A stretch of DNA of 64,000 nucleotides, taken from assembly GCA_944383705.1 (NCBI GenBank), contig CALWQR010000002.1:5118-69117 (forward strand), written 5' to 3'. The notes under the pieces were generated by a model that saw only the letters and a program-made list of their open reading frames with translations, was not told where the DNA came from and made no database searches. Below are positions 18,282 to 53,136 of this stretch, in pieces; position 1 is the first letter of the stretch, and every line of letters starts with the position of its first letter. A program made the position numbers and the translations under genes. Origin of the DNA: an uncultured Clostridia bacterium (GTDB lineage: Bacteria; Bacillota; Clostridia; Oscillospirales; CAG-272).

Positions 18282-18283
18282 AT

Positions 18284-19567: not shown

Positions 19568-20183
19568 GGGGAGTTCCGCCAGAGAAGAAGACCTTGGAGG
19601 GGCCGCCTCTTTCGGAGAGGCAGTCCCCTCCAAACCTCCCCTTGCGAGAACTTCCCCAGCCGCTGCCCGCCTGTTTGGTATAAACGCGAATGACAGCGCT
19701 CCGCCGGCGGGCGGCAGCCGGGGAAGTCTTCTTTGGGGAGGTGCGCAAAAAAACAAGGGCAATATCGCCATGAAACGCGATTTGCCCTGCATATCAGAAA
19801 ACCGGACAGCCGCCATGGGTTGCCCGGTTTTTGACGTTTTAGGTGAATTCATATGTATAAGCGTCAGCGTTTATCCTTGCTTTTTTATTGGACGCTGTCC
19901 TCTACTGGTTGCTCACTGTTCATTGTTAATTGCTGACCGCGCAAAAGAGCCGATATTCTGGAGTCACGCTATCCGACCGCGTCCGTTCGCAATCTCCCAA
20001 AAATTCATCCGCCCCCAAAAGAAATTCCCCGGCGCAGGCCCCCAGGTATACCATTTGCAATACAGTATGCAATACTGGGGGCCTTGCGCCGGGGAAGGTC
20101 TCGCCGGGGGAGGCCCCCGAGGGACCGGCCTCTCCTTAAGAGGCGGGTCCCTCCAAGGTCTTTCCCACTGGCGGAACTCTCCC
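19568..20183 (-). repeat. Composite palindromic repeat element, copy A (inverted relative to copies B and C), ORF-less
   Basis: By eye, most of its length aligns closely with the reverse complement of 41725-42339; the middle (about 19835-20020) is divergent. Its right arm aligns with the arms of 37265-38150. Termini GGGGAGTTCCGCCAG (19568-19582) and CTGGCGGAACTCTCCC (20168-20183) are inverted repeats. Confidence 0.85.
19797..19833. terminator. Bidirectional terminator-like hairpin inside element A, between convergent genes
   Basis: AAAACCGGACAGCC-GCCATG-GGTTGCCCGGTTTTT: a 14-bp stem (one mismatch, one wobble) flanked by an A-tract and a T-tract. Confidence 0.6.
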
Positions 20184-22826
20184 TCAGCGAAATTCGGTTT
20201 CGCCGTCCGGGAGGTAGACGTGTGTGCGGAGAATCGAGTATTCCTCTTCTGTCGGGTTGCCCGAGAGGATACCGCACTCCCGCCGGGCGGCCTGAATCAG
20301 CAGCTCGGGGTTGAGGTAGCTCCCTTCGCTGGCCGAGAGCCTCGCGCGGATGCGGATAACGCCTGGCTGCGCAGGGTCATATACCGTTTGCACACGGCGG
20401 ATCAGCGGAATCAGGTCAACCTCCTTCTCGCCTGACTTGCTCTTTTTGGTCATGGTCAGCGGTGAGGTGGTATACAGCGCCTGCAGCCGCCCGGCCGTTT
20501 CCGCATCGGCGCCGGCAAAGCGCAGCACAATTTCATAATCCGCCCAGCCGATGTCACGGAATTTCGTTTCGGGCTCGTAGGCCTCGGATACGCGCATCTC
20601 GTCGGTCAGCTCGCGGTTGAGCCGCCCGACCAGCTCCTCGGGGGGCATGTCGCGGTCCAGACGCAGGTCCAGCAGCTCGCACTCGCTTTCGGTTCCCACC
20701 GAAAGCGGCAGACCGAAGGTCACCTTGGCGTGGGGATTGAAGCCCTGCGTATACCACATCGGAATCCCGGCGCGCACCAGCACCCGCGCCAGGGTGCGCT
20801 GCAGGTCCAGGTGAGAGATGTATTGCAGGCTACCCACCTTGCGGAAGCGGACGCGCATGGTTTTGGGGGACTCCAGCCGGGGCCAGGCCCGCAGCGCCTC
20901 CTGCCGGTCGGGCAGGCGGGGCAGGGCCGGGGCGGTGGTGGGCTCGGGCGGACATTCGGCCACGTGCGGGCATACCGCGCGCACGCCCCCCAGCCGGTTG
21001 GCGCCGCAGCCGCTGCAGCTCTCGCGGCAGTTGGGCGTTGTCCTGCCGGCGTAGGCCTTTTCGCGCTCGCGCAGCAGAAATTCCTTGCTCACGCCGCAGT
21101 CGATGATGTCCCAGGGCAGCACCTCGTCGGCGCCATAGGCCCGGTTGGCGTAAAAGGCCGGATCGATTCCGGTGCGGGCAAACACCTCCATCCAGCGCTC
21201 ATAGCTGAAGAACTCGTCCCATGCGTCAAAGCAAAAGCCCTCGCGGCAGGCGAGCTCCAGCGCGGCAGAGAGCCGCCGGTCGCCCCGCGCCAGCACGGCC
21301 TCCACGCGGCTGACCTCGGCGTTGTGATGCTGGTAGCGGATGTGCCGGTTGGTGATTTTGCTGCCCAGATAGCGCTGTTTTTCGGCCAGCGTTTCCATCG
21401 TGTCCTGCGCCTCCCACTGAAAGGGCGTGAAGGGCTTGGGGATGAAGCAGGAAACGCTCACGGTCACCTGCACCTGCCGCGCCTTGTTGCGGTTGGGGTT
21501 TGCGTAATAGGCCTCCACCACCCGTTCGGCCAGCCGGGCAATGCCCTCCAGGTCCTCGGGCGTCTCGGTCGGCAGCCCCTCCATGAAATAGAGCTTGACC
21601 GCGCTCTTACCCGCGTCAAAGGCCACCTGCATGGCGCGCAGCACGTCCTCCTCCCGCACGTTCTTGTTGATGACGTCGCGCAGCCGCTGGGTGCCGGCCT
21701 CGGGCGCAAAGGTCAGGGAGGAGGCGCGCACCGAATCGATGCGGTCCATCAGCTCCCGGCGGAAGCTGTCCACCCGCAGAGAGGGCAGAGAAATGCTCAC
21801 CATGTTTTCGTCGGTCCAGGAGAGCAGCCTGTCGCAGAGCGGCTCGAGCGTGGTGTAGTCGCTGATCGAGAGCGAGGAGAGCGACAGTTCCTCGTATCCG
21901 GTGCTGCGGTAGAGGCATTCGGCCTGCCGGTTGAGCACCTCGGGGGTCTTTTCGCGCACCGGGCGGTAGATCATACCGGCCTGGCAGAAGCGGCAGCCCC
22001 GGATGCAGCCGCGGTAGACCTCAAGCATGATGCGGTCGTGCACGGTTTCGATGTAGGGCATCACCACCTTGTCCGGGAAATAGACGCGGTCCAGGTCTCG
22101 CACAATCTGCTTCTGCACCCGGGCGGGAATGTCGTCATAAACCGGGGTATAGGCCTCAATGGTACCGTCGGGACGGTAGCTCACGCGGTAGAGCGAGGGG
22201 ACGTACACGCCGGGAATGCTGCGCGCCGCCTCGTGCAGAAATTCCGCGCGGGTGTAGCGCCCCTCCTCCTTCATGCGGATGTAGAGGCGGACAATCGCGG
22301 GGAGCATGTTCTCCCCCTCCCCGATGTTGAACAGGTCGAAAAAGTCGGCCACCGGCTCGGGATTGAAGGCGCAGGGACCGCCGCCGATGACCAGCGGGTC
22401 GTCCTCCCCGCGGGTCTCGGCGCGCAGCGGAATGCCGGCCAGGTCCAGCATGTTGAGCACGTTGGTGTAGCTCATTTCATATTGCAGCGTGAAGCCGACA
22501 AAATCGAAGCAGTCCAAGGGGTCCTTGCTTTCCAGCGCCACCAGGGGCAGGCCGTGCGTCCGCATCTGCTCCTGCATGTCCACCCAGGGGTCGTATACCC
22601 GTTCGCACCAGATGTCGGAATGGGAATTGAGCGCGCCGTAAAGCAGGCGGACGCCGAGATTGGACATGCCGATTTCATAGGTGTCCGGGAAGCAGAAGGC
22701 AAACCGGGCCTTGACCGCGGAGCGATCCTTGATCACCTCGCCGTACTCCCCGCCGGCGTAGCGGCCGGGCTTGGAGACCGATTTGAGAATGGTGCTGTTG
22801 GGCCGGTTGATTGGTTTGGTTTTCAT
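20184..22826 (-). CDS. B12-binding-domain radical SAM protein (TIGR03960-type) fused to a TIGR03936/DUF2344 domain
   Basis: N-terminus SKPGRYAGGEYGEVIKD...FAFCFPDTYEIGMSNLGVRLLY is diagnostic of this family. CxxxCxxC is present as YRGCIRGCRFCQAG. The C-terminal 250 aa (MRVRFRKVGSLQYISHLDL) matches DUF2344. Confidence 0.85.
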   Translation of the reverse strand: MKTKPINRPNSTILKSVSKPGRYAGGEYGEVIKDRSAVKARFAFCFPDTYEIGMSNLGVRLLYGALNSHSDIWCERVYDPWVDMQEQMRTHGLPLVALESKDPLDCFDFVGFTLQYEMSYTNVLNMLDLAGIPLRAETRGEDDPLVIGGGPCAFNPEPVADFFDLFNIGEGENMLPAIVRLYIRMKEEGRYTRAEFLHEAARSIPGVYVPSLYRVSYRPDGTIEAYTPVYDDIPARVQKQIVRDLDRVYFPDKVVMPYIETVHDRIMLEVYRGCIRGCRFCQAGMIYRPVREKTPEVLNRQAECLYRSTGYEELSLSSLSISDYTTLEPLCDRLLSWTDENMVSISLPSLRVDSFRRELMDRIDSVRASSLTFAPEAGTQRLRDVINKNVREEDVLRAMQVAFDAGKSAVKLYFMEGLPTETPEDLEGIARLAERVVEAYYANPNRNKARQVQVTVSVSCFIPKPFTPFQWEAQDTMETLAEKQRYLGSKITNRHIRYQHHNAEVSRVEAVLARGDRRLSAALELACREGFCFDAWDEFFSYERWMEVFARTGIDPAFYANRAYGADEVLPWDIIDCGVSKEFLLREREKAYAGRTTPNCRESCSGCGANRLGGVRAVCPHVAECPPEPTTAPALPRLPDRQEALRAWPRLESPKTMRVRFRKVGSLQYISHLDLQRTLARVLVRAGIPMWYTQGFNPHAKVTFGLPLSVGTESECELLDLRLDRDMPPEELVGRLNRELTDEMRVSEAYEPETKFRDIGWADYEIVLRFAGADAETAGRLQALYTTSPLTMTKKSKSGEKEVDLIPLIRRVQTVYDPAQPGVIRIRARLSASEGSYLNPELLIQAARRECGILSGNPTEEEYSILRTHVYLPDGETEFR

Positions 22827-22905: not shown

Positions 22906-25900
22906 TTATTCGTCCGGACGCAGGCCGAAGCGCGTCAGAAAAAAGGAGATTGCCAGCCACAGCCCGCGGAAGAGCATGGGGAAGAGCACCAGCATGGCCG
23001 GCAGAAAGAGGCTGCGGTTGAGGAAGAGCAGCAGGGCGGCCAGCGCGCCGGCGGCAATTCCGGCCAGCTGCAGCCGCACCCCGGCGGTGCGCACCCGGCG
23101 GATTTCCGCCGCGGCTGCCAGGGGCAGGGCAATGTCATACACCTTTCCCAGCGCCACCGCGCCGCTGTCCGCCACCTCCTGCAGGGCGTCGGGCTCGTAG
23201 CGGCCGGGCTTGATGACCCGCACGTATCCGGCGTCATCCGGCCGGCTGCTCCGCAAAAATGCCTCGTTGAGGTTGGGGTCGTAGGTCTGAATGGCGGTGG
23301 TTGTATCGGATTCGGCCAGCAGCAGGGCCATTTCCTCAAACGAGGAGGCAACGGTGTACTCAATTTCATAGCTCAGCCGCAGTACGCCGTCAATTGCCAC
23401 ATACATCAGGCTGACATTCTTGGCGCGCTGTCCGGTGCGGTCGGTGGTTTCCCGCGGGACGCGCACTCCGCTTTTTGCAAGGAAGGCGGCGTTCCCGGCC
23501 AGCAGGTGATAGCGGTTGTCCACCACCGCCTCGGTGCCGTTTTCGGTCAGCCGTACAAAGGCCACCGGCGGGTCGTCGCTGCTGTGCAGCGGGGCGTTTT
23601 GCCCCACGGCGCCCAGCGTGCCGCTCATTTTGCGGAACAGGACGCCGGCCAGGCGCATATCCTGCCGGAAGTCCTCCCCCTCCCGCACCGAAATCTGTGT
23701 GCACCTCTGGGCGGTGTACATGTCGCTGTCATTGAAGATTACGGTTTTGGGCCGGCTGTATTCCTCCACCGATTCCTCACCGATCAGCGCGCAGTTGCGG
23801 CGGGAGAGGATGGCGTTGGCCCGGCAGAGCGGGTAAAAATAGAGCAGAAGCGAGGAGGTGGGGAGCGTGAACATCAGGAAGAGCGAGAAGGCCTGCAGCG
23901 CTCCGCCGAAGCTGTCGGACAGAATTCCACCGCCGATTCCCCCGAGCACGGCCAGAGCCACGGCCGATGCGATGAAAGCGGTGAACGGGCTCGATGCGTC
24001 CGAAAAATCGTTGCACCGGCGGAAGAATCCGGCAAGCTGTGCGGTGCGGCGGACGCGGTACAGGGCTTCGTCCACGTCGTCGTTGATGATTTTGACGATC
24101 CTGTCCCCGGCGCGCAGTTTTTTCTTGCGGGGCTCGGCGGTTTCCAGCACGGTTTTCTCGCCGTCGGCCGCAGCAATGCGGCAGACCCGCATCTCATCCG
24201 AAAGCCGCAGTGCGTCGCACACCGCGCACACCAGCAGCAGGCCGGACGCCGAGAGATTCAGGGGCAGCGCACCGTCTCCCGAGACGAGCAGCGAGAGCGC
24301 GCCGGTCAGCAGCGAGAGCGGGACAAACAGGCCGGCGGCCGAATAGGGCGTGGGGGTAAAGCGGAACAGACTGCGCAGCCCGGCCGTGATCTGCCGCAGC
24401 GAGAACAGCCCGGCCGCGCAGAGCAGCAGCAGGCCCAGCGCCGGGAAGAGCAGGGGGGCGGCCTCGGTATAGGGCGCAAGAGCGCCGCCGAACAGCCCGG
24501 GCAGGTCGATCGGAATCAGCAGCAGCGTGCAGAGCGCGGTGAACAGCAGGCGCAGCATCAGCCGCCGCCGGTCATGCGCGTAGTGCTCCAGCATCAGCTC
24601 CCGCCGGGGGGCGCCCCCGGTAAAGGCAGGGTTGCGGTAGCCAAAGGCGGTGCGGTACTGCCCGCTGTCGGCCTCCGCCTGCGTGCGGCGGATGTGGTCG
24701 AACTTCAGCCGGCGCAGCGCGTCATAGCCCACCAGGCGCCCCAGCTCGTTTTCGTATCCCAGCTCAAAAATCAGGGCCACGTCGTCCTCGGTCAGATTGG
24801 TCTTTTTTTCGATCAGGGCAATTGCGTTCATGGCCTCTTCGGCCCGCTTTTGCTTCTTTTCCTTCATCACCGCAAAGACCGATTGCTTCCGGGTCTGCAC
24901 CACCTCGGGCTCCTCCATCGGCAGCACCTCCATGGGGCTCTCCTCGGGGACAATCTCGTCCAGCGCCTCGTCCAGGTTGTCGTCCTCGGGCAGGGCGGCA
25001 ATCGGCGTGCGGTTGATGCGCATCGGGCGCTTTTTGGCCGGATGCATCCTGGGCCCGGCCGGACGCAGCCCCGGCCGCGGCGGCTTGGGCGGCGTCTTTC
25101 CGGGAGCTCTGGTGGTTGTATTGCCGGCTCCCGGCGCGGACGTGCGCGCCTGGGGCGCCGGCCCGGAGGCTGCCGCTGCCGGAGCGGTCTTTGGAGCGTC
25201 CGCGGCTCTGCGCGCCTGCGGTGCGGGCGCGGCAGCTTCCGGTGCGGGCTTGGCGGCCTGCGGAGCAGATTGGTTTGCCTGCGGAGCGGATTTGGTTGTT
25301 TCCGGCGCGGGCTTGTTTGCCTTCGGCGCGGGCGCGGCTTTTGCGGCTGACGCCTGCGGCTGTTCGGGAGAGGTGGCCTGCCCGGCCGCGGGCCGCGGCT
25401 GTTCTGCCTGCGGGGAGGGGCTGGGCGGGACCTGCTGCTCCGGGCGCCCGGCTTTCTGCGGTGCGGCCGCAGCCGGTGCGGCGGGCGGATCGAGACGCTT
25501 CGGCGCGTCCGGACGGTCGGTCTGCCTGGGCTTGATGACAATCGGCGCCTGCGGCTGCGCTGCCGGCTGCACCGGTGGAATGACAATTGCTTCCGCCGGC
25601 TGTGTAGGTTTCACTGCCGGTTGCTGTTGCTTTGCCTCCGGCTGCGTCAGCCTGACCTTCGGCTTTTCCTCTGGCTGTGCCGGTTTCGCCGCCGGTTGTG
25701 GCTGCTTTGCCTCCGGCTGTGACGGCTTAACCTTTGGCTTTTCCTCGGGCTGCGCCGGTTTTGCCGCCGGTTGTGGCTGTTTTGCCTCTGGCTGTGACAG
25801 CTTGACCTTCGGCTTTTCCTCGGGCTGTGCCGGTTTCGCCGCTGGTTGTGGCTGCTTTGCCTCTGGCTGTGACGGTTTAACCTTCGGCTTTTCCTCGGGC

Positions 25901-26742
25901 TGTGCCGGTTTCGCCGCTGGTTGTGGCTGCTTTGCCTCTGGCTGTGACGGTTTAACCTTCGGCTTATCCTCGGGCTGCGCCGGTTTCACTGTTGGCTGTG
26001 GCTGCTTTGCCTCCGGCTGCGACTGCCTGACCTTTGGTTTTCCCTCCGGCTGTGGCTGCTTTGCCTCCGGTTGCGCCGGCTTTTCCGGTGGCTCGGTTGC
26101 CGCCGATGCGGTTTTGCCTGCGTTGGATGCGGCTTTTGCCGTTTCGGCTGCGGGCTTGGTTTCTTTGGCTGCGGCTTTGGAGTCTTCGGGGTCAACCTTG
26201 GCCGCCGTGGGAACACTGTCGGCGGTCAGCTTCAAAAGGGCTTCGGGCAGCTTCTGCTCCCCGGATATCCCGTCCTCCGCCGGCAGTTCCTCCTGCGCCG
26301 TCAGGGCCCGGATGGGCGCGGGGGCGGCGCTGTGGGCGGTCTTCTGCCCGCTTCTTTTTTTCGTTTTTGGCTGTTCCTCCGGCGCCGCGTCTGGCTCTGC
26401 TTTCCGGGGGCTTGCCGGGGACGTCCTGCCGGCCGGCTCCGGCTCCGGAGACGCTTTTTTTCCGGCTTTTTGCCGTTCGGTCCGGTCCGGCGTCTGTTTC
26501 CCGGCCTTGCCGGCCGGCTTTTCGGGCGGGGCTGGTGTGTCCCCGTCGTTCGCGGCAGGAGGCTGCCGGCTCTCCTCGCCGGAAACCCGGTTGAGCATTC
26601 CGGCAATTTTGTTCTGAAAATCCACCTCGTCCGCGTCCGGCTTCTGCTTCCGTCCGGACGGTTCCTGGGCGGAGAGCACCGCCTGCTGCAGCTTTTGCAG
26701 CAGTTCGTCGGTATTCTGCTGATTGGTCTTTTTGGCTTTCAT
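22906..26742 (-). CDS. 1278-aa protein: long disordered K/P/Q/E/A-rich N-terminal region with 25-aa tandem repeats, plus a C-terminal polytopic domain resembling a catalytically degenerate P-type (P1B-like) ATPase
   Basis: AAAGGAG RBS precedes ATG 26742. The C-terminal about 700 aa has TM helices and, by eye, aligns to heavy-metal P-type ATPases: ...ALIGEESVEEYSRPKTVIFNDSDMYT at the DKTGT position, TYDPN at TGDN, and GKVYDIALPLAAA at GDGxNDAPAL. Confidence 0.75.
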   Translation of the reverse strand: MKAKKTNQQNTDELLQKLQQAVLSAQEPSGRKQKPDADEVDFQNKIAGMLNRVSGEESRQPPAANDGDTPAPPEKPAGKAGKQTPDRTERQKAGKKASPEPEPAGRTSPASPRKAEPDAAPEEQPKTKKRSGQKTAHSAAPAPIRALTAQEELPAEDGISGEQKLPEALLKLTADSVPTAAKVDPEDSKAAAKETKPAAETAKAASNAGKTASAATEPPEKPAQPEAKQPQPEGKPKVRQSQPEAKQPQPTVKPAQPEDKPKVKPSQPEAKQPQPAAKPAQPEEKPKVKPSQPEAKQPQPAAKPAQPEEKPKVKLSQPEAKQPQPAAKPAQPEEKPKVKPSQPEAKQPQPAAKPAQPEEKPKVRLTQPEAKQQQPAVKPTQPAEAIVIPPVQPAAQPQAPIVIKPRQTDRPDAPKRLDPPAAPAAAAPQKAGRPEQQVPPSPSPQAEQPRPAAGQATSPEQPQASAAKAAPAPKANKPAPETTKSAPQANQSAPQAAKPAPEAAAPAPQARRAADAPKTAPAAAASGPAPQARTSAPGAGNTTTRAPGKTPPKPPRPGLRPAGPRMHPAKKRPMRINRTPIAALPEDDNLDEALDEIVPEESPMEVLPMEEPEVVQTRKQSVFAVMKEKKQKRAEEAMNAIALIEKKTNLTEDDVALIFELGYENELGRLVGYDALRRLKFDHIRRTQAEADSGQYRTAFGYRNPAFTGGAPRRELMLEHYAHDRRRLMLRLLFTALCTLLLIPIDLPGLFGGALAPYTEAAPLLFPALGLLLLCAAGLFSLRQITAGLRSLFRFTPTPYSAAGLFVPLSLLTGALSLLVSGDGALPLNLSASGLLLVCAVCDALRLSDEMRVCRIAAADGEKTVLETAEPRKKKLRAGDRIVKIINDDVDEALYRVRRTAQLAGFFRRCNDFSDASSPFTAFIASAVALAVLGGIGGGILSDSFGGALQAFSLFLMFTLPTSSLLLYFYPLCRANAILSRRNCALIGEESVEEYSRPKTVIFNDSDMYTAQRCTQISVREGEDFRQDMRLAGVLFRKMSGTLGAVGQNAPLHSSDDPPVAFVRLTENGTEAVVDNRYHLLAGNAAFLAKSGVRVPRETTDRTGQRAKNVSLMYVAIDGVLRLSYEIEYTVASSFEEMALLLAESDTTTAIQTYDPNLNEAFLRSSRPDDAGYVRVIKPGRYEPDALQEVADSGAVALGKVYDIALPLAAAAEIRRVRTAGVRLQLAGIAAGALAALLLFLNRSLFLPAMLVLFPMLFRGLWLAISFFLTRFGLRPDE
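25605..26075 (-). repeat. About 6.5 tandem copies of a 75-nt coding repeat (25-aa unit KPKVKPSQPEAKQPQPAAKPAQPEE)
   Basis: The near-identical unit GGCTTTTCCTCGGGCTGTGCCGGTTTCGCCGCTGGTTGTGGCTGCTTTGCCTCTGGCTGTGACGGTTTAACCTTC repeats head to tail on the plus strand. It is in frame with the 22906-26742 CDS. Confidence 0.9.
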
Positions 26743-35638: not shown

Positions 35639-35671
35639 TGACAAAAATAAATCATTTTCATGGAGGATGTT

Positions 35672-37264
35672 ATGAACAAAGACATTCAGAAACCGTTCAG
35701 ATGGATCTACGCCGCCGGAATGCTGGTACTGGCGGCCGCATTGCTGATTGTAAGCTTTTTGCCCATTGTCAGCCTGCGCAGCACCGGTGAGCCCTCCGAG
35801 TGGTACACCGGCGGGCGGTACACCTCGGTGATGGGGGAGAACGATGAGGACCTGCCCCTGACCTTTGGCACCGCGCTGTTTGCCGTGCAGAATTTCTCAG
35901 ATATTTATACCATTCTGCAGATTCAGGGCTATGAGTCCTCGATTGAGGAGCTGGAGGACAGCATTGCCGAGGAACGCGCCAAGGGCGAGGATGCGTCCGA
36001 ATCCCGGCTGGAGAAGCTGAACACGGAGCTGACCGAAACCGGACTCAAGCTGACCGAGGCGCTGGCCTCCCAGACCGAGGAGCAGAAGGCCGCGCTGGAT
36101 GAAAAGCTGAAGAGCGGCGAGCTGACCCCCCTGTTCCGCTGCACGGAGTCTGCCCTGCAGGCGTTTGTCGGCACCACCTCCGAGGGCAACGCCACCTTCG
36201 GTATCATCAGCGGAATGGTTGGCCTGCTGGCCCTGGTGGCTTACATCCTGTTTGTTGTGATTTTCCCGATTGTAGCCGCCATTTCGCTGCTGGTTCTGCT
36301 CATCCGCTTCCTGACCCGTATGAAGAACCTGGAGGATGAGCAGCTTGCCAAGCTTTCGGCCGTCAAGCTGTACGCCGGGTTTGTTCCGCTTTTCCTGATG
36401 CTCCTGGTGCTGCTCTCGGTCGGCTCTTTCCATGTGTCCCTGAACGGCGGGCTGGTTGCCCTGCTGCTGGTGCTGCTGGCGCTGGCGGTTGCGCTGAACA
36501 TTGCCCGTGAGTGGAATCTGGAGGGCAAGAGCGGCGTTGCCTCGATCATCCGTCAGGGGCTGACCGTGCTCAGCCTGGTGGCCCTGACTGTGATGGCCTT
36601 CGGACTTTCGGGTATGCGCCTGAGCGAGACCTTCATCGCGGATTCCGGCCGGTTCTCGCTGGAATATCAGACCGCCATGGTGGCCTCCGGCAGCAATCTG
36701 ACGACGGCCGGGAGTCAGGCCGACAGCAAGTGCATGCTCGCCGCGGCAATGGTGGTAGGGATTGGTCTGATCGCCGCCATTCTGATTGAAATCGGCCTCC
36801 ATTCTCTGCTGACCGGCCGCAGCGCTACCACAAAGTTCGCCCGCAAAAAGAGCGGTACGCCCAAGTTTATCCTGGCCGGCCTGCTGCTGGTGCTGATGAT
36901 TGCCGTACCCGTGCTGCTGGTTACCGGAAGCGTGGAGTCCCGCAGCTCGGCCGCCCGCAGCGGAAGCTTCAAGGTGATTCTGGACGCCTACCGGGTGGAG
37001 GGCACCGCGGACTATACCGAGTACCAGGCTGCCCAGGTCGCGCTGGACGCCGCCACCGCTACCGGCAGTGCAGAGCTGATTGACCAGGCGCAGGCTACCC
37101 TGGATGGCCTCGAAACCAATCAGAAAGCCTCGCTGACCCTCTCTGTCGCGTTTGCCGTCATCCTCTTTGCTTCCGAAATCTGCTATGCCGTTCTCCCCGG
37201 CAAATTTGAAACGAACGACGCAGCTTCGCCAGAGGAGAAGCCTTTGGAGACCCCCGCCTCGTAA
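35672..37264 (+). CDS. Polytopic membrane protein of unknown function
   Basis: Multiple long hydrophobic segments with an acidic coiled-coil-like loop (EELEDSIAEERAKGEDASESRLEKLNTELTE). GGAGGA RBS before ATG 35672. The last 14 codons and the stop lie in repeat-derived sequence. Confidence 0.7.
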   Translation: MNKDIQKPFRWIYAAGMLVLAAALLIVSFLPIVSLRSTGEPSEWYTGGRYTSVMGENDEDLPLTFGTALFAVQNFSDIYTILQIQGYESSIEELEDSIAEERAKGEDASESRLEKLNTELTETGLKLTEALASQTEEQKAALDEKLKSGELTPLFRCTESALQAFVGTTSEGNATFGIISGMVGLLALVAYILFVVIFPIVAAISLLVLLIRFLTRMKNLEDEQLAKLSAVKLYAGFVPLFLMLLVLLSVGSFHVSLNGGLVALLLVLLALAVALNIAREWNLEGKSGVASIIRQGLTVLSLVALTVMAFGLSGMRLSETFIADSGRFSLEYQTAMVASGSNLTTAGSQADSKCMLAAAMVVGIGLIAAILIEIGLHSLLTGRSATTKFARKKSGTPKFILAGLLLVLMIAVPVLLVTGSVESRSSAARSGSFKVILDAYRVEGTADYTEYQAAQVALDAATATGSAELIDQAQATLDGLETNQKASLTLSVAFAVILFASEICYAVLPGKFETNDAASPEEKPLETPAS

Positions 37265-38150
37265 GATTCCCACCGATGGAGAAGACCTTGGAGGGACCCG
37301 TCTCGTAAGATTCCCACCGATGGAGAAGACCTTGGAGGGACCCGCCTCTTAAGGAGAGGCCGGTCCCTCCAAGCCTCCCCCGGCGAGACCTTTCCCCGGC
37401 ACAGGCCCCCGATTTTCGTATCCTGTATTGCAAATACGGTATGCCCGGGGGCCTGCGCCGGGGAATTTCTTTTGGGGGCGGATGAGGGGTGAGGTCGGCG
37501 GACAGGCGCGGTTGGATAGCATGACTCCGGAACACTGGCCCTTTTGCGCGTTTGGCGGAATGCTTTGAATGGAACAATACGGGATGCGTAACGCGCAGGA
37601 AACAGCAGGCAGCGGGCAACGGGCAGCGGGTAGTTAGTAGTGGCCAGTGGTCTGTGACCAGGAAAAAGCGAGAACAACAGCTGATGTTTAGATATAGACG
37701 CACCCATACCATCAAAAACCGGGCAACCCATGGCGGTTGCCCGGTTTTCTGATATTTTCTGATATGCAGGGCAAATCGCATTGGATGGCGGTATGCTCTT
37801 ATTTTTTGCGCACCTCCCCCAAAAAGACTTCCCCGGCTGTCGCCCGCCGGCGGGGCGATGTCATTGGCGCATACCTGAAAGAAACGTGAAAAGGTGGGAA
37901 ATACCTTCCGGCGTTTTGCTATTGATTCGCGTCTGTCCGCAAACAATAAAATTTCATCCTATCCCAAGAAAAATTCCCCGGCGCGGGCCCCAGGGCATCC
38001 CATATTTGCAATACCGTATGCATTTCTGGGGGCCTGCGCCGGGGAAGGTCTCGCCGGGGGAGGCTTGGAGGGACCGGCCTCTCCTCAAGAGGCGGGTTCC
38101 TCCAAGGTCTTTTCCAGCGGCGGGAATCTTAAGAGGCGGGGCTCTCCAAG
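37265..38150 (+). repeat. Composite palindromic repeat element, copy B (most complete, both arms present), ORF-less
   Basis: Left arm (37265 to about 37560) and right arm (about 37862 to 38150) are inverted copies. Each carries hairpin H1 (37331-37373; 38064-38106) and hairpin H2 (37394-37463; 37976-38044). The core holds a heptamer tract (37601-37656) and a terminator hairpin. Confidence 0.85.
37715..37748. terminator. Terminator-like hairpin inside element B
   Basis: AAAACCGGGCAACC-CATGGC-GGTTGCCCGGTTTT, a perfect 14-bp stem including the A/T tracts. Confidence 0.65.
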
Positions 38151-38184
38151 TTTTTCTCTTTAGCGAATCTCTCCCAAAAGGCGC

Positions 38185-38213
38185 TTGACAGGTTTTTGTG
38201 AATGTGGTATAAT
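38185..38213 (+). promoter_or_regulatory. Sigma-A-type promoter for the ABC exporter operon
   Basis: TTGACA (38185-38190), 17-nt spacer, TATAAT (38208-38213) with TGg extended -10. It starts 35 nt after the end of element B. Confidence 0.65.
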
Positions 38214-38316
38214 AGGGCGGAGACGGAGCGCGGGAGGAACCGGCAGGTCGGAGAAACCGGGAGACCGGCGAAAAAACGGTCTATGGCGGCGCGTTCCGGC
38301 GGAAAGGAGCAGGAAG

Positions 38317-39042
38317 ATGCTGAACATTCAACACCTCACCAAAACCTACGGTGACAAAAAAGCGGTGGACGATTTATCGCTGCACATTGCGCCCGGTGAA
38401 ATTTACGGCTTTATCGGGCATAACGGGGCAGGGAAAACCACCACCATCAAGGCATGCTGCGGGATTTTGCAGTTTGACAGCGGGGAAATTCTCATCGACG
38501 GTCTTTCCATCCGGCAAAAGCCCCTGCAGTGCAAGGCGAAAATCGCATATATACCGGACAATCCGGACCTGTACGAATTTATGACCGGCATCCGGTATCT
38601 CAATTTTATTGCCGATATCTTCGGCGTGAGCGCGGCCGACCGCCGCGAGCGCATCCGCCGGTATGCCGACCTGTTTGAGCTGACGCCGAGCCTGGCGCAG
38701 CCCGTCAGCGCCTACTCGCACGGGATGAAGCAGAAGCTGGCCATCATTTCGGCCTGGCTCCACAGCCCGCAGCTGATTATTATGGATGAGCCGTTTGTCG
38801 GTCTGGATCCCAAGGCCTCCCACCTGCTCAAGGAGATGATGCGGGAGGTCTGCCGGCAGGGCGGCGCCATCTTCTTCTCCACGCACGTGCTGGAGGTGGC
38901 TGAAAAGCTGTGCGATAAGGTTGCCATCATCAAATCCGGCCGGCTGATTCGCTCGGGCACAATGGAGGAGGTCAGGGGAGACGCCTCGCTGGAGGAGGTC
39001 TTTCTGGAACTGGAGGACGGCAATGCTGGGCGCGCTGATTAA
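38317..39042 (+). CDS. ABC transporter ATP-binding protein
   Basis: Walker A GHNGAGKTT, signature YSHGMKQKL, Walker B LIIMDEPFVGLD. GGAAAGGAG RBS. Confidence 0.9.
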   Translation: MLNIQHLTKTYGDKKAVDDLSLHIAPGEIYGFIGHNGAGKTTTIKACCGILQFDSGEILIDGLSIRQKPLQCKAKIAYIPDNPDLYEFMTGIRYLNFIADIFGVSAADRRERIRRYADLFELTPSLAQPVSAYSHGMKQKLAIISAWLHSPQLIIMDEPFVGLDPKASHLLKEMMREVCRQGGAIFFSTHVLEVAEKLCDKVAIIKSGRLIRSGTMEEVRGDASLEEVFLELEDGNAGRAD

Positions 39043-40624
39043 AAAACAGATGCTGGAGGCGTTTGCCTCATTCACCAAGGGCAGCAAGCAGGGCAAAACA
39101 CGCAGCCCGGGCGCGGCGATAGGCATTGGGCTGCTGCTTCTGTTCGCCTATGCGTCGCTGGCATTCTGCTTTGCCATGCTGGCTTTTTCGCTTTGCACCC
39201 CGCTGGCCTCGGCCGGCCTTGGCTGGTTGTATTTTGCGCTGATGGGGAGCTTTGCCACCCTGTTCGGCGTGATAGGCAGCGTGTTTACCACCTACAACGC
39301 GCTGTATGTGGCCAAGGACAACGAGCTGCTGCTGTCCATGCCGATTCCGCCGGCCTGTCTGCTGTTCTCGCGCATGGTGGGGCTGTATCTGATGACCCTG
39401 CTGTTTGAGGCCATTGTGATGGTGCCGGCATGCGTGGTGTATTGGATTTTTGTACCGGCCGGGCCTGCCGCGGTCATCTTTGCTCTGCTCACGGTTCCGG
39501 TGCTCCCGCTGCTGGCGCTGTCCATTTCCTGCATTCTTGGCTGGCTGCTGGCGCTGATTGCGCCGTATGTCAAGCACAAGAGCATTGTAACGGCGCTGCT
39601 TTCGGTGGTGTTTCTGGTGCTGTACTATATTGTGGCGTTCCGCATGAACGACCTGATGCAGAGCCTGATTGCAAACAGTGAGGCGATTGGCGGGCAGTTC
39701 CGGACCGTGCTCTTCCTGTTTTACCAGATGGGCCTGGGGGCCGAGGGCGGCGTGCTTGGATTTCTGCTTTTTGTGCTGATGACTGCCGGGGTTTTTGCCA
39801 TTGTATATGCGGTTCTGTCGGCTAATTTTGTCAAGCTGGCCACCAACAGGCGGGGCGGACCCCGGGCGGTCTACCGCGAAAAGCGCACCGAGGCGCGCCC
39901 GCAGGGTAGGGCGCTGCTGGGCAAGGAGCTTTCCCGCTTCTGGGGCAGTTCGGTGTACCTGCTCAACAGCGGCATGGGATCGCTGTTTCTGATTGTGGGC
40001 GCTGTGGCGGCGCTCGTCAAGGCCGGGTGGATTTCCGAAAACATTACAGCTTTTCTTGCTCAGTCCGGCCTGGCCGATATGCTCCCGCTGCTGCTTTGCG
40101 CCGTGGTCTGTATGGTCGTGTCCATGAATATCGTCACGGCGCCGTCGGTCTCGCTGGAGGGCAGCGGTATCTGGCTCTTGCAGTCGCTTCCGGTCCACCC
40201 GTGGAAGGTGCTGTGCGCCAAGCTGGAGCTGCACCTGCTGATTACGCTTCCGCCCGCGCTGCTTTGCACGGTCGTGCTGCTGGCGGTACTGCGGGTCGGG
40301 GTGCTGGGCGCGGTGCTTTCCGTGCTGACGGTTTGCCTGTTTGTGCTGTTCTGCGCAGCCTTTGGCCTGGTGATGAATCTGCTGTTCCCCAACCTCAAAT
40401 GGAACAGTGAGGCGGTTGCGGTCAAGCAGGGCATGAGCGTGATGCTGGCCATGTTCGGCGGCTGGGGGCTGGTGCTGCTGCTGGGACTGGGGGGATACCT
40501 GTGGTGCCTGATTCTGCCGGCCGCCGGATATCTGGCGGTGTGCGTCGCGGCGCTGGGACTGGGCGGCGGATTGCTGCTGTTCGCCCTACACGGCTGGGGC
40601 AGCCGGCGCTTTGCCGGGCTGTAG
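39023..40624 (+). CDS. Putative ABC exporter permease (large multi-TM, ABC_export-like)
   Basis: Overlaps the ATPase gene by 20 nt. About 12 hydrophobic segments. The N-terminus MLGALIKKQMLEAFASF is typical of this permease family. Confidence 0.75.
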   Translation: MLGALIKKQMLEAFASFTKGSKQGKTRSPGAAIGIGLLLLFAYASLAFCFAMLAFSLCTPLASAGLGWLYFALMGSFATLFGVIGSVFTTYNALYVAKDNELLLSMPIPPACLLFSRMVGLYLMTLLFEAIVMVPACVVYWIFVPAGPAAVIFALLTVPVLPLLALSISCILGWLLALIAPYVKHKSIVTALLSVVFLVLYYIVAFRMNDLMQSLIANSEAIGGQFRTVLFLFYQMGLGAEGGVLGFLLFVLMTAGVFAIVYAVLSANFVKLATNRRGGPRAVYREKRTEARPQGRALLGKELSRFWGSSVYLLNSGMGSLFLIVGAVAALVKAGWISENITAFLAQSGLADMLPLLLCAVVCMVVSMNIVTAPSVSLEGSGIWLLQSLPVHPWKVLCAKLELHLLITLPPALLCTVVLLAVLRVGVLGAVLSVLTVCLFVLFCAAFGLVMNLLFPNLKWNSEAVAVKQGMSVMLAMFGGWGLVLLLGLGGYLWCLILPAAGYLAVCVAALGLGGGLLLFALHGWGSRRFAGL

Positions 40625-40696
40625 GCTCCGGGCGCTTCTGCGTGGCCGGAGCGGTCGCATCGGATTTTTTTGACGAATGGATAACGAAAGGATGCT

Positions 40697-40729
40697 GCCC
40701 TGCCGCCGGAAGCCTTCCGGCGGCAGGGC
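40697..40729. other. 33-nt near-perfect palindrome between the ABC permease and the deaminase gene
   Basis: GCCCTGCCGCCGGAAG-C-CTTCCGGCGGCAGGGC, 16-nt arms. No U-tract. Confidence 0.6.
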
Positions 40730-40739
40730 GAACCGGAAT

Positions 40740-41147
40740 ATGGAACCAATCTGGGAGGAGCTGTACCGCCGCGCCGCGGCTGTACGGCAGGAGAGGCGCA
40801 TTTCGCCCTTTGTGGAAGCCGGCGGCGTGGCCGCGGCGCTCCTGACCGGGGCGGGCAATATTTACACGGGGGTGTGCATTGACACGGCCTGCTCGCTTGG
40901 CATGTGCGCCGAGCGCAACGCCATTGCCAACATGATTACCAACGGGGAGCATGACATCCGCCGCCTGGCGGTTGTCATGCCGGACGGGCAGCTGGGGCAG
41001 CCCTGCGGCGCCTGCCGGGAACTGATGATGCAGCTGGGGCGCGATAGCGGGGAGATTGAAATTCTGACCGACCTCGCCTCCGGCGCCTCGGTCCGGCTGC
41101 GGGAGCTCTGCCCCGACTGGTGGACGGAGGCCCGGTATGACTGCTGA
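40740..41147 (+). CDS. Cytidine/blasticidin-S deaminase family protein (small homotetrameric CDA type)
   Basis: Zn ligand motifs CAERNAI and PCGACRELM. About 135 aa. The overall layout resembles Bsr/BSD-type deaminases. The start is uncertain (weak RBS). Confidence 0.7.
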   Translation: MEPIWEELYRRAAAVRQERRISPFVEAGGVAAALLTGAGNIYTGVCIDTACSLGMCAERNAIANMITNGEHDIRRLAVVMPDGQLGQPCGACRELMMQLGRDSGEIEILTDLASGASVRLRELCPDWWTEARYDC

Positions 41148-41724
41148 ACCGACCGCCTGCGGCTGCCCGGAGCGGACAGGAAGCGCCTCCGCGCCGGTCC
41201 GCTATGCCGTGCTGACGCCGGAGAATTTCGGCCCCCGTTCGCTCGATGGGTTTATCCGGCATCAGGAGGTGCGGGAGTGCTGGCGGCGGATCGGAGGCGA
41301 TTGGGCGCTGGTGCCCGTTGCCTTTACGGAGGAGTGGAGCCGTGCACAGCTCCGTGAGAATGCGGATGCGCTGCTGCGCGCGCTGTTGTCCGGCGGCTAT
41401 GCCTGCGGGGCGTTTTGCGGGCAGACGCTGGTCGGCTACCTCCTGGTGCTGCCGGAGCGCTTCGGCAGCCGGGGGCAGTATATCGAGCTGAAGGAGTTTT
41501 ACGTTTCGGAGCCTTATCGCGGCCGGGGCATCGGCCGGGAGCTGTTTGCACGCGGGGTGGCCTATGCCCGTGCGGCCGGAGCCCAAAAGCTCTATATCTC
41601 GGCGCATTCCTCCCGCGAGAGTCAGGCCGCCTACCGCCGTCTCGGATGTGTGCCGACCCCCGAGCCCGACCCCGCCCGCGCCGCTCGCGAGCCCTGTGAC
41701 GTACAAATGGAATACCTGTTGTGA
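41137..41724 (+). CDS. GNAT-family N-acetyltransferase
   Basis: Acetyl-CoA motif A: FYVSEPYRGRGIGRELFARGVAYARAAG. The start overlaps the deaminase stop. Confidence 0.8.
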   Translation: MTAEPTACGCPERTGSASAPVRYAVLTPENFGPRSLDGFIRHQEVRECWRRIGGDWALVPVAFTEEWSRAQLRENADALLRALLSGGYACGAFCGQTLVGYLLVLPERFGSRGQYIELKEFYVSEPYRGRGIGRELFARGVAYARAAGAQKLYISAHSSRESQAAYRRLGCVPTPEPDPARAAREPCDVQMEYLL

Positions 41725-41916
41725 GAGCTTCGCCGTTGGGAAAGACCTTGGAGAGACCCGCCTCTTAAGGAGAGGCCGGTCCCTCGGGGGCCTCCCCCGG
41801 CGAGACCTTCCCCGGCGCAGGCCCCCAGTATTGCATACGGTATTGCAAATACGGTATGCCCGGGGGCCTGTGCCGGGGAATTTCTTTTGGAGGCGGATGG
41901 ACAATTGGCAATGTGC

Positions 41917-42028
41917 CATTAGCAATTAGCAGTTAGCAGTTAGTAATGAGCAATGAGCAGTGGGAAATGGGCAGTGAACAGTGAACAGTGAACAGTGAAC
42001 AGTGAACAGTGGGCAGTGGTCGGTGGCC
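41917..42028 (+). repeat. Heptanucleotide tandem tract, 16 units (5 perfect AGTGAAC units)
   Basis: cattagc aattagc agttagc agttagt aatgagc aatgagc agtggga aatgggc (agtgaac)x5 agtgggc agtggtc ggtggcc. Confidence 0.9.
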
Positions 42029-42083
42029 CCTAAAAGCAAGGGCAACTGCTGATATGTTACATATGAATATACCCATATCATCA

Positions 42084-42117
42084 AAAACCGGGCAACCCAT
42101 GGCGGCTGTCCGGTTTT
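42084..42117. terminator. Terminator-like hairpin inside element C
   Basis: AAAACCGGGCAACC-CATGGC-GGCTGTCCGGTTTT. A second hairpin plus T-tract follows at 42127-42166. Confidence 0.6.
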
Positions 42118-42427
42118 CTGATATGCAGGGCAAATCGCATTGGATGGCGATAAGCCCTTATTTTTTGCGCACCTCCCAAAAAAGACTTCCCCGGCTGCCG
42201 CCCGCCGGCGGGGCGCTGTCATTGGCGATTTTCTCAACAGGCGGGCGGCGGTCGGGGAAGGTCTCGCAAGGGGAGGTTTGGAGGGGACTGCCTCTCCGAA
42301 AGAGGCGGCCCCTCCAAGGTCTTCTTCCCCAGCGGCATCTATCTTTCGCCAGACGGTGGGCGGGCAAGAGATACAATTCTTACATGGGTATTTCCGTAAT
42401 TTTTGGAGCCGGAAATGGAAAAAGCAC

Positions 42428-42456
42428 TTGACAAATCCGTCCGGGTGTGCTATACT
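42428..42456 (+). promoter_or_regulatory. Sigma-A-type promoter for the pyr operon
   Basis: TTGACA (42428-42433), 17-nt spacer, TATACT (42451-42456). Confidence 0.65.
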
Positions 42457-42679
42457 ATAATCGCAATTTTTAAGTCGGTACCGCGATGCCGGCAAGATTG
42501 GGGAAACAGCCGCCGTGCGCACCGTACCGGGTGCGGCGGGGTGGCTTTGCGTGCGTGTCAATCCTGCCGGAGGCAGGATTTTTTTGTTGCCGCCCGGGGA
42601 CGTGCGGGTGACCGCGCGCCGGTGCTTTGCCGATGTTTTGCCGGTGTTTTGGAGTATTACAGAAAAGGAATGGAACCGC
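42457..42679 (+). promoter_or_regulatory. pyr operon leader with transcription attenuator (PyrR-type regulation expected)
   Basis: A leader of about 220 nt upstream of pyrR contains a competing hairpin (CCGCCGTGCGCACC...GGTGCGGCGG) and an intrinsic terminator. The canonical PyrR-binding loop (UCCAGAGAGG) was not found by eye. Confidence 0.5.
42560..42586 (+). terminator. Intrinsic terminator (attenuator) in the pyr leader
   Basis: AATCCTGCC-GGA-GGCAGGATT followed by TTTTTTG. Confidence 0.75.
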
Positions 42680-52957: not shown

Positions 52958-53097
52958 GGACGGAATCAACTGTTCCTTGTAACTGGCGGAATCAACGTGG
53001 AGCACCACGGAGGGAGCAGGGAACACGTCCGGCAAGACACGCCGTCCCCCATGGGCTTCTGTGCGCAATGCTTGCCGCCGCCGTCCGTCTGGGCACG
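52958..53097 (+). promoter_or_regulatory. ZTP (pfl-motif) riboswitch aptamer
   Basis: The 5' subdomain GUAACUGGCGGAAUCAACGUGGAGCACCACGGAGGGAGC matches the conserved ACUGGCG...GUGG.A..ACCAC.G.GGGAGC core. A variable linker hairpin follows (CGGCAAG...CUUGCCG). The 3' subdomain CCGUCUGGGCAC matches CCGCCUGGGCA. Location upstream of pur/folate genes fits. Confidence 0.75.
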
Positions 53098-53136
53098 CTT
53101 GATCGCTGGGGGTTAAGTGTGCCCTTTTGTATTTTT
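53091..53136 (+). terminator. Riboswitch expression-platform terminator
   Basis: GGGCAC...GTGCCC stem followed by TTTTGTATTTTT. The left arm overlaps the 3' pseudoknot segment of the ZTP aptamer. Confidence 0.7.

Follow-up and report, generated by a model that had tools for sequence, protein, structure and literature searches.

A family of non-coding mosaic repeats with inverted, predicted terminator-bearing arms at gene ends of an uncultured Clostridia bacterium and its relatives

Three intergenic segments in a stretch of 64,000 nucleotides (nt) from an uncultured Clostridia bacterium (assembly GCA_944383705.1, contig CALWQR010000002.1, positions 5,118 to 69,117; hereafter the window) are members of a non-coding repeat family that is undescribed as far as the tools used can tell. 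The three copies, referred to as A (19568-20183, − strand), B (37265-38150), and C (41725-42339, + strand), are 0.6–0.9 kb in length and are assembled from arms bearing two successive hairpins, H1 and a longer stem (H2 or H2′), and from a centre bearing two terminator-like hairpins, T1 and T2. Related copies are found at approximately 10 other loci in several uncultured Oscillospiraceae-like species. On balance, the element is probably a lineage-specific mosaic repeat of the type of repetitive extragenic palindromes (REPs) and bacterial interspersed mosaic elements (BIMEs), one that works as a cassette for terminating transcription in both directions and for insulating neighbouring genes. Its copies are dispersed; they turn over from one species to the next and have been homogenised or reshuffled inside genomes.

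The existence of the family in the window is supported by several searches. Direct and inverted repeat pairs of 94–154 nt with 77–93% identity connect 19576-20181, 37235-38158, and 41723-42342. The 24-mer AAGACCTTGGAGGGACCCGCCTCT of the H1 box occurs five times at ≤3 mismatches, as against no occurrence in 100 shuffles, and the 3′ arm of H2 and the core of T1 occur six and three times, respectively, at the same tolerance, with approximately zero expected in shuffled sequence. A profile of the arm searched with nhmmer retrieved, at E-values from 1e-41 to 4e-50, exactly six full arms across the 64 kb (19574-19742+, 20176-20007−, 37311-37483+, 38126-37956−, 41729-41898+, and 42336-42174−) and a remnant of H2′ (37812-37881), with no other match in the window. 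In a four-way alignment, A (reverse strand) and C are colinear across ~620 nt, and B consists of the common left part and, at the right end, a copy of its own left arm in inverted orientation. The unusual right half of B is no artefact of the window assembly because 37704-41763 is recovered with 98.7% identity in a metagenome assembled independently (L016). An earlier note on this DNA, made by a model from the letters alone, had proposed an open reading frame (ORF)-less, multi-module palindromic repeat family in these three segments; the family is genuine, and all the modules that the note listed were recovered where it had placed them, H1 (37331-37373) and H2 (37394-37463) of copy B exactly, together with a tract of 7-nt tandem units (Tandem Repeats Finder arrays at 37603-37630 and 41902-42018) and a terminator-like hairpin in B (37715-37748). 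The arm that it described as inverted at both ends of B is likewise found, over 118 nt at 90% and 66 nt at 83% identity, and the alignment runs on into the spacer.

The copies have no coding signal. In each pair of copies, 7–12 of the 8–14 indel runs are not multiples of three, the mismatches between copies lack codon periodicity, and no reading frame is conserved, as had been noticed at the outset. The copies are not parts of a segmental duplication, a possibility raised in the earlier note, because the flanking genes differ at each locus. In the Rfam search, only ZMP-ZTP at 52969 passes the gathering threshold in the window; the elements yielded no family match at either the gathering or a permissive threshold, and their best matches were microRNA-precursor models at 30 bits against thresholds of at least 65. 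No description of the family was found in the literature searched by topic and by the 12-mer motif AAGACCTTGGAG, in line with the first impression that it belongs to no described family.

The repeated unit is the arm, of ~170 nt, which comprises from the outside inward a terminus, the AAGACC box, H1, a linker, a long GC-rich stem (H2 or H2′), and a U-tract. Briefly, the outer end is a ragged terminus, (G)AGA(G)WTYCCGCCRNNGG, followed by the box RAAGACC; H1 is built on the foot TTGGAG/CTCCAA and has a stem of 17–19 bp in the aligned ends (17–22 bp overall) and a loop of TAAGG or TTCGG; the C-rich linker, CC.CCCC..GCGAGAnCTT, ends in RAGAnCTT; and the long GC hairpin is succeeded by a U-rich tail, either AATTTCTTTTGG or AAGTCTTCTTTGG. 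Arms are classified into two types in accordance with this hairpin, long arms with H2 (CCCCGGCGCAGGCCCCC...) and short arms with H2′ (CCCCAGCCGCCGCCCGCC...). In an alignment of 16 arms (A2), the box, the H1 foot, GCGAGAnCTT of the linker, and the base of H2 are invariant, and A and C have an arm of this kind at either end, the terminal ~95 nt of the two ends being inverted repeats with 85–93% identity. A and C each carry a second copy of the arm, diverged in sequence (H1′ and H2′), at the right end, a point that goes beyond the earlier note. A full element comprises two diverged inverted arms around a fast-changing centre, and the centre comprises a variable stretch (either a spacer of the type shared by A and B or a long 7-nt array), an AT-rich block, T1, and T2. 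T1 is bidirectional, being preceded by an A-tract and followed by a T-tract. The hairpin units are 41–70 nt in length. Furthermore, zero to two units of 44–45 nt, termed H1-lite, precede an arm, and each corresponds to H1 minus ~10 nt of the 3′ stem. The 3′ foot of H1 reads CTCGGGGGCC, not CTCCAAGCC, at 41783-41797 and 20107-20121 of the window and at 499-512 of another locus (L013); the CTCGGGGGCC version allows an alternative small hairpin, GGGGGCCTCCCCC, with the linker, and the two versions alternate between strains at locus C.

The start of each of the 17 arms facing a gene's 3′ end lies 1–40 nt past the stop codon of that gene (at least 11 loci, median ~16 nt). The GNAT protein beside C ends with the family-native ...EPCDVQMEYLL, and the C-terminal codons of the radical-SAM gene beside A are kept in all orthologs, the element, where present, beginning 3–20 nt later. 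The 534-amino-acid protein upstream of B was examined in the same respect for a C-terminus supplied by the element; its homologs are at most 30% identical, too distant for this purpose, and their alignments end at approximately residue 528. The arms that face a downstream gene (38126-37956 and 42336-42174) end before strong promoters at 38185 and 42428. The orientation of the element tracks the flanking genes, in that the long arm adjoins the gene whose direction matches T1 and T2. The abutment of arms on stop codons, the U-tracts of H2 and H2′, and the reach of the family into other species were all absent from the earlier note.

Covariation was tested on the 16-arm alignment. RNAalifold mis-paired the H1 foot with the U-tract on this alignment, and an explicit H1+H2 structure was used instead. 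With this structure, 90.7% of the cells are paired, as against 41–60% with slid partners; eight pairs carry double changes, and none of 500 shuffles reaches the covariation score. The double changes represent few events because most of them separate the H2 class from the H2′ class, and the comparison of the radical-SAM orthologs is the stronger evidence of conservation. Pairs 1–5 of the H1 foot are invariant in 13 of the 14 copies compared, the remaining copy (L024_b) departing in its fold register at pairs 3–4, whereas pairs 6–20 have been rewritten across at least four species (GACCCGCCTCT vs. GAGCCCCCTTCT vs. AAGGGGGCTTCT) yet are still Watson-Crick paired. The free energies of H1 across species are −25 to −49 kcal/mol, and both arms of a given species carry an H1 version peculiar to it. 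By contrast with the inner stem, the 12-mer AAGACCTTGGAG is invariant across species.

Copies outside the window were retrieved with a spurious ORF crossing the element as a protein query, which found 19 "proteins" on 19 other contigs; the family is therefore larger than the three copies from which it was first recognised, and metagenome contigs break in the element. Six further full or partial elements lie at unrelated loci on other contigs, with dapA/queA/rpoB, FUR/cobW, and mgsA as neighbours. Full elements are found beside dapA/queA/rpoBC in NCBI GCA_949294025.1 (L012) and beside FUR/cobW genes (L013), and a contig of 5 kb has elements at both its start and its end (L014). The assemblies GCA_965342355.1 and GCA_965334205.1 are carriers of the family as well. 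The related metagenome-assembled genome (MAG) CALXUY01 contains a full element (L007), the ortholog of copy A (L006 and L010), and a solo arm between two co-directional genes (L009, with L011 representing the same locus). Contigs of the window species itself break inside elements. A scan of genomes with an H1 pattern returned one related MAG (CALXUY, four stretches) and two chance matches (L005 and L008), and a scan of metagenomes with a pattern of the H1-H2 junction returned one contig (L011). Viral contigs gave zero matches, and phage and plasmid collections gave no match except low-complexity heptad arrays. One relative (P0028) shows no synteny.

The site downstream of the TIGR03960 radical-SAM gene allows the orthologs to be compared directly. 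It is occupied in the window, CALXUY, L023, and L024; in L025 no element is present, and in L026 another repeat takes its place. At 82% (L023) and 78% (L024) identity of the radical-SAM protein, the box, H1, linker, and a terminator again follow the gene, arms being found at both ends of an intergenic region of 350–420 nt; the H2 position is taken by textbook terminators with 6–7 U, and L023 has an additional arm after a Na/Pi-cotransporter gene. At 81% identity (L025), the orthologous site is empty, with 59 nt of intergenic sequence and one plain bidirectional terminator. The gene end has been colonised by another repeat family in L026 (77% identity, 12700-13450), in which the intergenic region after the orthologous gene is 920 nt long and contains twice another repeat consisting of the hairpin GGGCGGGTTGACCCCGCCCC and its flanks.

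Turnover is also seen between copies and strains. Copies resemble one another more closely inside one genome than orthologous copies do across species. For copy A, the match with the paralog C extends over 83% of the length and that with the CALXUY ortholog over only 68%, and the gene adjoining copy A is 91% identical between the window species and CALXUY. Another strain (L015) spans locus C and is 98% identical over 9.7 kb; its element is 90.7% identical overall, with an extra 45-nt H1-lite unit, an H1 foot of CCAAG vs. GGGGG, and many substitutions. A centre of a "foreign" type, one that belongs to another copy, is observed at loci C and A in L016 (4240-4484) and L027 (5323-5521), respectively; as these contigs end inside the repeat, the centres represent either real gene conversion or chimeras of the de Bruijn graph. 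Slippage between direct box repeats explains the gain and loss of the 44–45-nt units, and recombination between copies explains the concerted evolution. The candidate mechanism of spread considered most likely is a putative trans-acting enzyme recognising the H1 foot, along with gene conversion and slippage between copies.

The terminator features underlie the functional part of the preferred reading. H2 (−55 kcal/mol) and H2′ (−44 kcal/mol) are followed by AAUUUCUUUUGG and UCUUUUUUGG, respectively, and both are long stems with 6–8 U in the subsequent 12 nt; H1 at 37331-37373 has a free energy of −33 kcal/mol. T1 (−18/−20 kcal/mol), with U-tracts on both strands, and T2 (−15 kcal/mol), followed by UAUUUUUUG, are predicted to be canonical intrinsic (Rho-independent) terminators. 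Termination at the arm hairpins is likewise predicted from sequence. A transcript leaving the flanking gene would meet H1 within 1–40 nt of the stop codon and would be terminated at H2 or H2′, with T1 and T2 catching read-through. H1 read from the inside outward and then GGUCUU(U/C)UUCC might form the last barrier to antisense transcription into the neighbouring gene. The element would act in this manner as a portable bidirectional terminator and insulator cassette from which the mRNA gains a structured 3′ end, and the solo arm in CALXUY01 would work as a module of the 3′ untranslated region (UTR).

Several observations weigh against a terminator and insulator cassette of the REP/BIME type. 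H2 and H2′ are atypical terminators, with stems of 17–20 bp and loops of 34–40 nt, and function alone leaves the architecture unexplained because no cell needs four to five terminators in a row. Mismatches of the stems on the inward strand comprise 33 A.C and 16 G.U, and selection on the inward RNA strand is therefore not demonstrated. The strict conservation of AAGACCTTGGAG, which a mirror of the U-tract would not need, is taken as a sign of specific recognition by a protein and is not explained by function at the sequence level; the candidates are the enzyme behind the spread of the arms, as with REP/RAYT, and a factor of the host. Neither the window nor ~190 kb of related loci yielded a mobilising gene. 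A check of boundaries, suggested in the earlier note, yielded the empty orthologous site in L025 and no visible target-site duplication, the sequences bordering A (GCTGA / ACTCC), C (TTGT / TTTC), and L012 lacking a direct repeat; target duplications of the Tn3, IS5, and IS630 types are not present. Furthermore, some of the strain differences could be assembly chimeras of contigs ending in the repeat.

Two rival accounts concern the spread of the element. A classical MITE (miniature inverted-repeat transposable element), that is, an internally deleted derivative of a DDE transposon moved by cut-and-paste via its terminal inverted repeats with the hairpins and terminators as incidental cargo, is rather improbable. 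The ~95-nt inverted ends of 85–93% identity, the 0.6-kb size without ORF, the AT-rich centre, the presence of copies at unrelated loci together with an empty orthologous site, the breaking of assemblies in the element, and the end-to-end folding of the whole single strand (z = −11 to −27) are consistent with this account. Terminal inverted repeats, small size, lack of an ORF, and presence/absence polymorphism, as features of MITEs, are thus found, whereas a target-site duplication is not: no direct repeat flanks A, C, or L012, the ends are ragged with a stretch of 1–40 nt from stop codon to AAGACC, solo arms and tandem partial units occur, no transposase with such ends is found in the window or the fetched loci, and the architecture has been kept across species while the sequence has been replaced, which is unexpected for decaying transposon ends. 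A system resembling REP doublets forming hairpins (REPINs) and their REP-associated tyrosine transposases (RAYTs) is unlikely but has a better claim than the MITE; here a domesticated HUH/Y1 (or other) enzyme, encoded by a single-copy gene elsewhere in the genome, would recognise the hairpin H1 with its conserved 5′ flank and copy arms or inverted pairs as single-stranded DNA. This account is a rival with respect to spread and is compatible with the terminator role. The inner stem co-varies from species to species, with the foot and 5′ box unchanged, as in REP families co-evolving with their RAYT (PMC5581495); moreover, inverted arm doublets form one long hairpin, both arms carry the species' own version of H1, and the position is extragenic and near stop codons, as in many E. 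coli REPs. However, no Y1 transposase gene was found by Pfam in the window or the fetched loci, a GTAG-type head is absent, and the units are far longer than REPs. RAYT groups 2 and 3, which are associated with REPINs, are illustrated with Escherichia and Pseudomonas (PMC5581495). A related and tentative proposal, for which the odds are poor, is that H1, with its invariant foot AAGACC-TTGGAG...CTCCAA, its freely co-varying stem, and a predicted terminator in every case behind it, is the cis site of a dedicated trans-acting protein in the Oscillospiraceae-like clade, with the elements as self-propagating "terminator cassettes" settling at gene ends. The protein that reads H1 could be a domesticated transposase or a factor linking translation termination to transcription termination or mRNA decay.

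Two further accounts concern RNA and inversion. The arm would, in one of them, be a structured RNA, either a cis-acting element of the 3′ UTR, with H1 binding a protein or coupling translation and transcription termination, or a small RNA (sRNA) with an internal promoter in the AT-rich block. H1 lies 1–16 nt past the stop codon in several copies, inside the footprint of a terminating ribosome, its loop UAAGGAG combines a stop codon with a Shine-Dalgarno-like sequence, the stems co-vary, and a weak −35/−10-like pair lies past T1 on the opposite strand (TTGCCC-18-TATATT, 42095-42066). According to work cited in PMC12306157, E. coli REPs less than 16 nt from a stop codon stall ribosomes. These points are set against the lack of Rfam matches above noise, the lack of conservation of the candidate promoter between copies, the lack of a G.U excess over A.C in the stems, the two arms (38126-37956 and 42336-42174) that face promoters, into which no upstream gene reads, and the centre, the would-be body of an sRNA, which is the least conserved part; a structured RNA is accordingly considered very doubtful. 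An invertible, phase-variable segment, with the arms as invertase sites flipping a centre with the one-way T2, would account for long inverted repeats bracketing an asymmetric centre, but is hardly credible: no recombinase is encoded in the window, orientation follows the flanking genes consistently, and at locus C the window and four other contigs agree in orientation, at least two of these contigs being from different samples and only one (L015) spanning the whole element.

The comparison with known systems places the family nearest to REP/BIME repeats. The earlier note had set it apart from that type owing to its size and nesting; the recurring unit is, however, an arm of ~170 nt, found also on its own (L009), in which the hairpins lie in tandem and the foot and linker are conserved. 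The family shares with REP/BIMEs an extragenic, non-coding location, GC-rich imperfect palindromes with a conserved foot, units of alternating orientation with conserved linkers and variable tandem number (0–2 H1-lite units, varying between strains), many copies no more than ~20 nt from a stop codon, suggested roles in termination and protection of mRNA 3′ ends, and a species-specific version of the sequence. The proximity of E. coli REPs to stop codons and their effect on translation are described in PMC12306157. The differences from REP/BIMEs include an arm four to five times longer (~170 vs. ~35 nt) with its own U-tract terminator, two extra canonical terminators and a 7-nt array, a Gram-positive anaerobic host, the lack of a RAYT in the loci examined, and the foot RAAGACC-TTGGAG in place of a GT(A/G)G head, with GTGG/GTAG found upstream in a few copies only. 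The family is therefore not a REP/BIME in the strict sense but works most like one. To our knowledge, no RAYT-associated REP system has been described in Clostridia.

Other repeat systems share individual features with the family. BOX elements of Streptococcus pneumoniae have the structure boxA-boxB(n)-boxC and a length of 100–300 nt; they too are modular, ORF-less intergenic repeats of a Firmicute, with conserved end modules, a tandem middle module, and strong folding, whereas they are shorter than the present elements, their ends are not inverted copies of this sort, and they are not known to be tied to stop codons or to carry a terminator set. Correia elements of Neisseria, bcr1, and RUP are MITEs whose ends are defined, whose insertion duplicates the target (TA for Correia), and for which a parent insertion sequence (IS) is plausible. 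The inverted ends, lack of an ORF, dispersed intergenic occurrence, and capacity to supply terminators or alter the expression of neighbours are similar, whereas the ends of the present family are ragged, a duplication is not visible, and a parent was not found. The cyanobacterial short tandemly repeated repetitive (STRR) sequences are heptanucleotide tandem repeats. Together with (CAATGAG)n arrays of Yersinia, they resemble the centre of the elements in their intergenic 7-nt units and fast change of copy number, the Yersinia array also lying between convergent genes; here, however, the 7-nt array is one internal module, and the likeness is one of low complexity rather than common descent. The array in question, a long (CAATGAG)n(CAATGAA)n between convergent genes on the Yersinia pseudotuberculosis plasmid pYPSE1-1 (189514-189650; L022 1501-1640), was the sole C-like sequence in the plasmid collection, and it indicates that 7-nt arrays arise at convergent gene ends in unrelated bacteria. 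The attC sites of integrons are similar in being structured sites after a stop codon with a conserved foot and a variable inner stem, and were rejected: the RYYYAAC/GTTRRRY core sites and intI are absent, and the neighbours are syntenic housekeeping genes (pyr, pur, and radical SAM). Palindrome-associated transposable elements (PATEs) derived from IS200/IS605 were rejected likewise: they have non-inverted ends, subterminal hairpins of one polarity, and insertion 3′ of a fixed tetra- or pentanucleotide, whereas the ends here are inverted copies and the T(G/A)AG often preceding the element is the host stop codon at variable distance.

By analogy, the family may be regarded as the logic of BIMEs and BOX elements on a larger scale, namely mosaics of inverted arms around a variable centre. 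It is unusual in its size, its four to five built-in terminators, and its tight association with stop codons combined with a foot motif conserved across species. If the preferred reading is true, REP/BIME-type repeats extend beyond Proteobacteria to abundant uncultured gut Clostridia, where they are larger and more elaborate; if the H1 protein is a domesticated transposase, this would be the first partnership of the REPIN/RAYT kind in Clostridia. Strong bidirectional (predicted) terminators with a conserved foot would provide a tractable system for asking which protein reads the hairpins and how the repeats spread. The elements break short-read assemblies every few kb and can produce chimeric contig ends, thereby affecting MAG quality in the clade, and comparisons of strains in this family require spanning reads. 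The 7-nt array and the 44–45-nt units vary between contigs of the same species and are possible strain markers, the variation of the 45-nt unit being taken from a spanning contig and the difference in the 7-nt array from a contig ending in the repeat.

The anatomy of the individual copies is as follows. Copy A begins with a short arm on the + strand (19568-19742), composed of the terminus, H1′ (19593-19633), linker, H2′ (19651-19726), and U-rich tail, which faces the 3′ end of the Fe-ADH_2 gene 18278-19546. Its centre (19744-20006, − strand) contains T2 (19744-19790), T1 (19791-19832), the 7-nt tract, and the spacer, and is followed by the long arm (20007-20183, − strand) with H2 (20027-20094), H1 (20114-20157), and terminus, which begins directly after the TGA of the radical-SAM gene 20184-22826(−). 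In copy C, the long arm (41725-41898, + strand; terminus, H1 at 41747-41790, linker, H2 at 41810-41878, and U-tract) begins immediately past the native stop codon (TGA) of the GNAT gene 41137-41724. The centre of C (41899-42169, + strand) comprises the 7-nt array (41902-42018, with 5.7 perfect CAGTGAA units), the AT-rich block, T1 (42083-42124), and T2 (42125-42169), and the short arm (42174-42339, − strand) comprises H2′ (42186-42260), linker, H1′ (42278-42318), and terminus, lying ~90 nt upstream of the pyr promoter 42428-42456.

Copy B is more complex. Its left edge on the + strand is formed by two 44-nt H1-lite units (37234-37321), each with an AAGACC box, the 5′ half of H1, TAAG, and a degenerate 3′ half; Tandem Repeats Finder reports a 44-nt tandem at 37234-37353 with a period of 44 and 2.7 copies. 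The first unit (37234-37277) encodes the final 10 codons of ORF 35660-37264 together with its TAA stop, which occupies the loop position. The left long arm (+ strand) continues with the AAGACC box and H1 (37322-37373; H1 at 37331-37373, 19 bp with one C.C mismatch and the loop TAAGG) and with the linker CCTCCCCCGGCGAGACCTT, H2 (37394-37463), and the U-rich tail AATTTCTTTTGG (37374-37477), the latter stretch being readable as a putative intrinsic terminator for transcripts from the upstream gene. On the same strand, the variable centre (37478-37713) contains the A/B-type spacer, a degenerate 7-nt array (37603-37630 and beyond), and the AT-rich block, and is succeeded by the canonical terminators (37714-37810) T1 (37714-37755, bidirectional) and T2 (37766-37810). 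A remnant of the short-arm H2′, of which one side is kept, lies at 37828-37869 (− strand), and a second long arm occupies 37870-38175 (− strand) in inverted orientation, with the spacer, H2 (37976-38044), H1 (38064-38106), an H1-lite half unit (38107-38150), and a degenerate terminus (38151-38175). The preferred interpretation of B is a long arm, centre, and H2′ remnant fused to a second, inverted long arm. The earlier note had taken it for the most complete of the three copies; its appearance is instead that of a standard element interrupted in the H2′ of its short arm and fused there to that arm. A nested insertion into the TTAAG loop of H1 with duplication of TTAA was also considered; it fits B and fails in L013, L014, and L015 because the matching outer 3′ half of the hairpin is absent, and B is explained equally well by inverted duplication of the whole arm.

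The surroundings of the elements are those of an ordinary chromosome with pyr and pur operons, lysS, dut, the TIGR03960 radical-SAM gene, ABC transporters, and regulators, a GC content of ~64%, and relatives of the window proteins annotated as Oscillospiraceae, Ruminococcaceae, or Clostridia MAGs. The impression of the earlier note that a transposase or integrase is lacking agrees with Pfam scans of the 45 window genes, among which no transposase, integrase, or Y1 gene was found. Adjacent to the radical-SAM gene, ORF 22906-26742 (−) encodes 1278 amino acids without a Pfam match and contains at least six tandem 75-nt units of 25 codons each (25516-26115). The orthologous ORF between the SpoU-methylase and radical-SAM genes of relatives encodes 1142 or 1304 amino acids or is split into 377 and 723, and the product appears to be a fast-evolving repetitive protein. 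Integrase genes lie directly upstream of the SpoU-methylase gene in L023 (3001-5045), along with a Rep_1 gene, and in L025 (3917-5089), along with IS21-like and HTH genes; this region is likely an integration hot spot in the relatives, though not in the window.

Downstream of copy C, a consensus promoter (TTGACA-17-TATACT at 42428) is followed by a terminator-like hairpin and T-run at 42560-42580, ahead of pyrR (region 42428-42600). This hairpin is probably a PyrR-type attenuator; Rfam gave no PyrR site at the gathering threshold at the pyrR leader. A 17-nt unit, GGAGAAACCGGCAGACC, is repeated 2.4 times (38233-38273) in the leader between the perfect promoter at 38185-38213 and an ABC-transporter gene. 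The ZMP/ZTP riboswitch (RF01750; 43.3 bits against a threshold of 39) lies at 52969-53101 (+), just upstream of purE at 53193. Finally, a 57-nt tandem duplication with 86–96% identity is located at 149-262, in ORF 188-2260 (−), which has no Pfam match.

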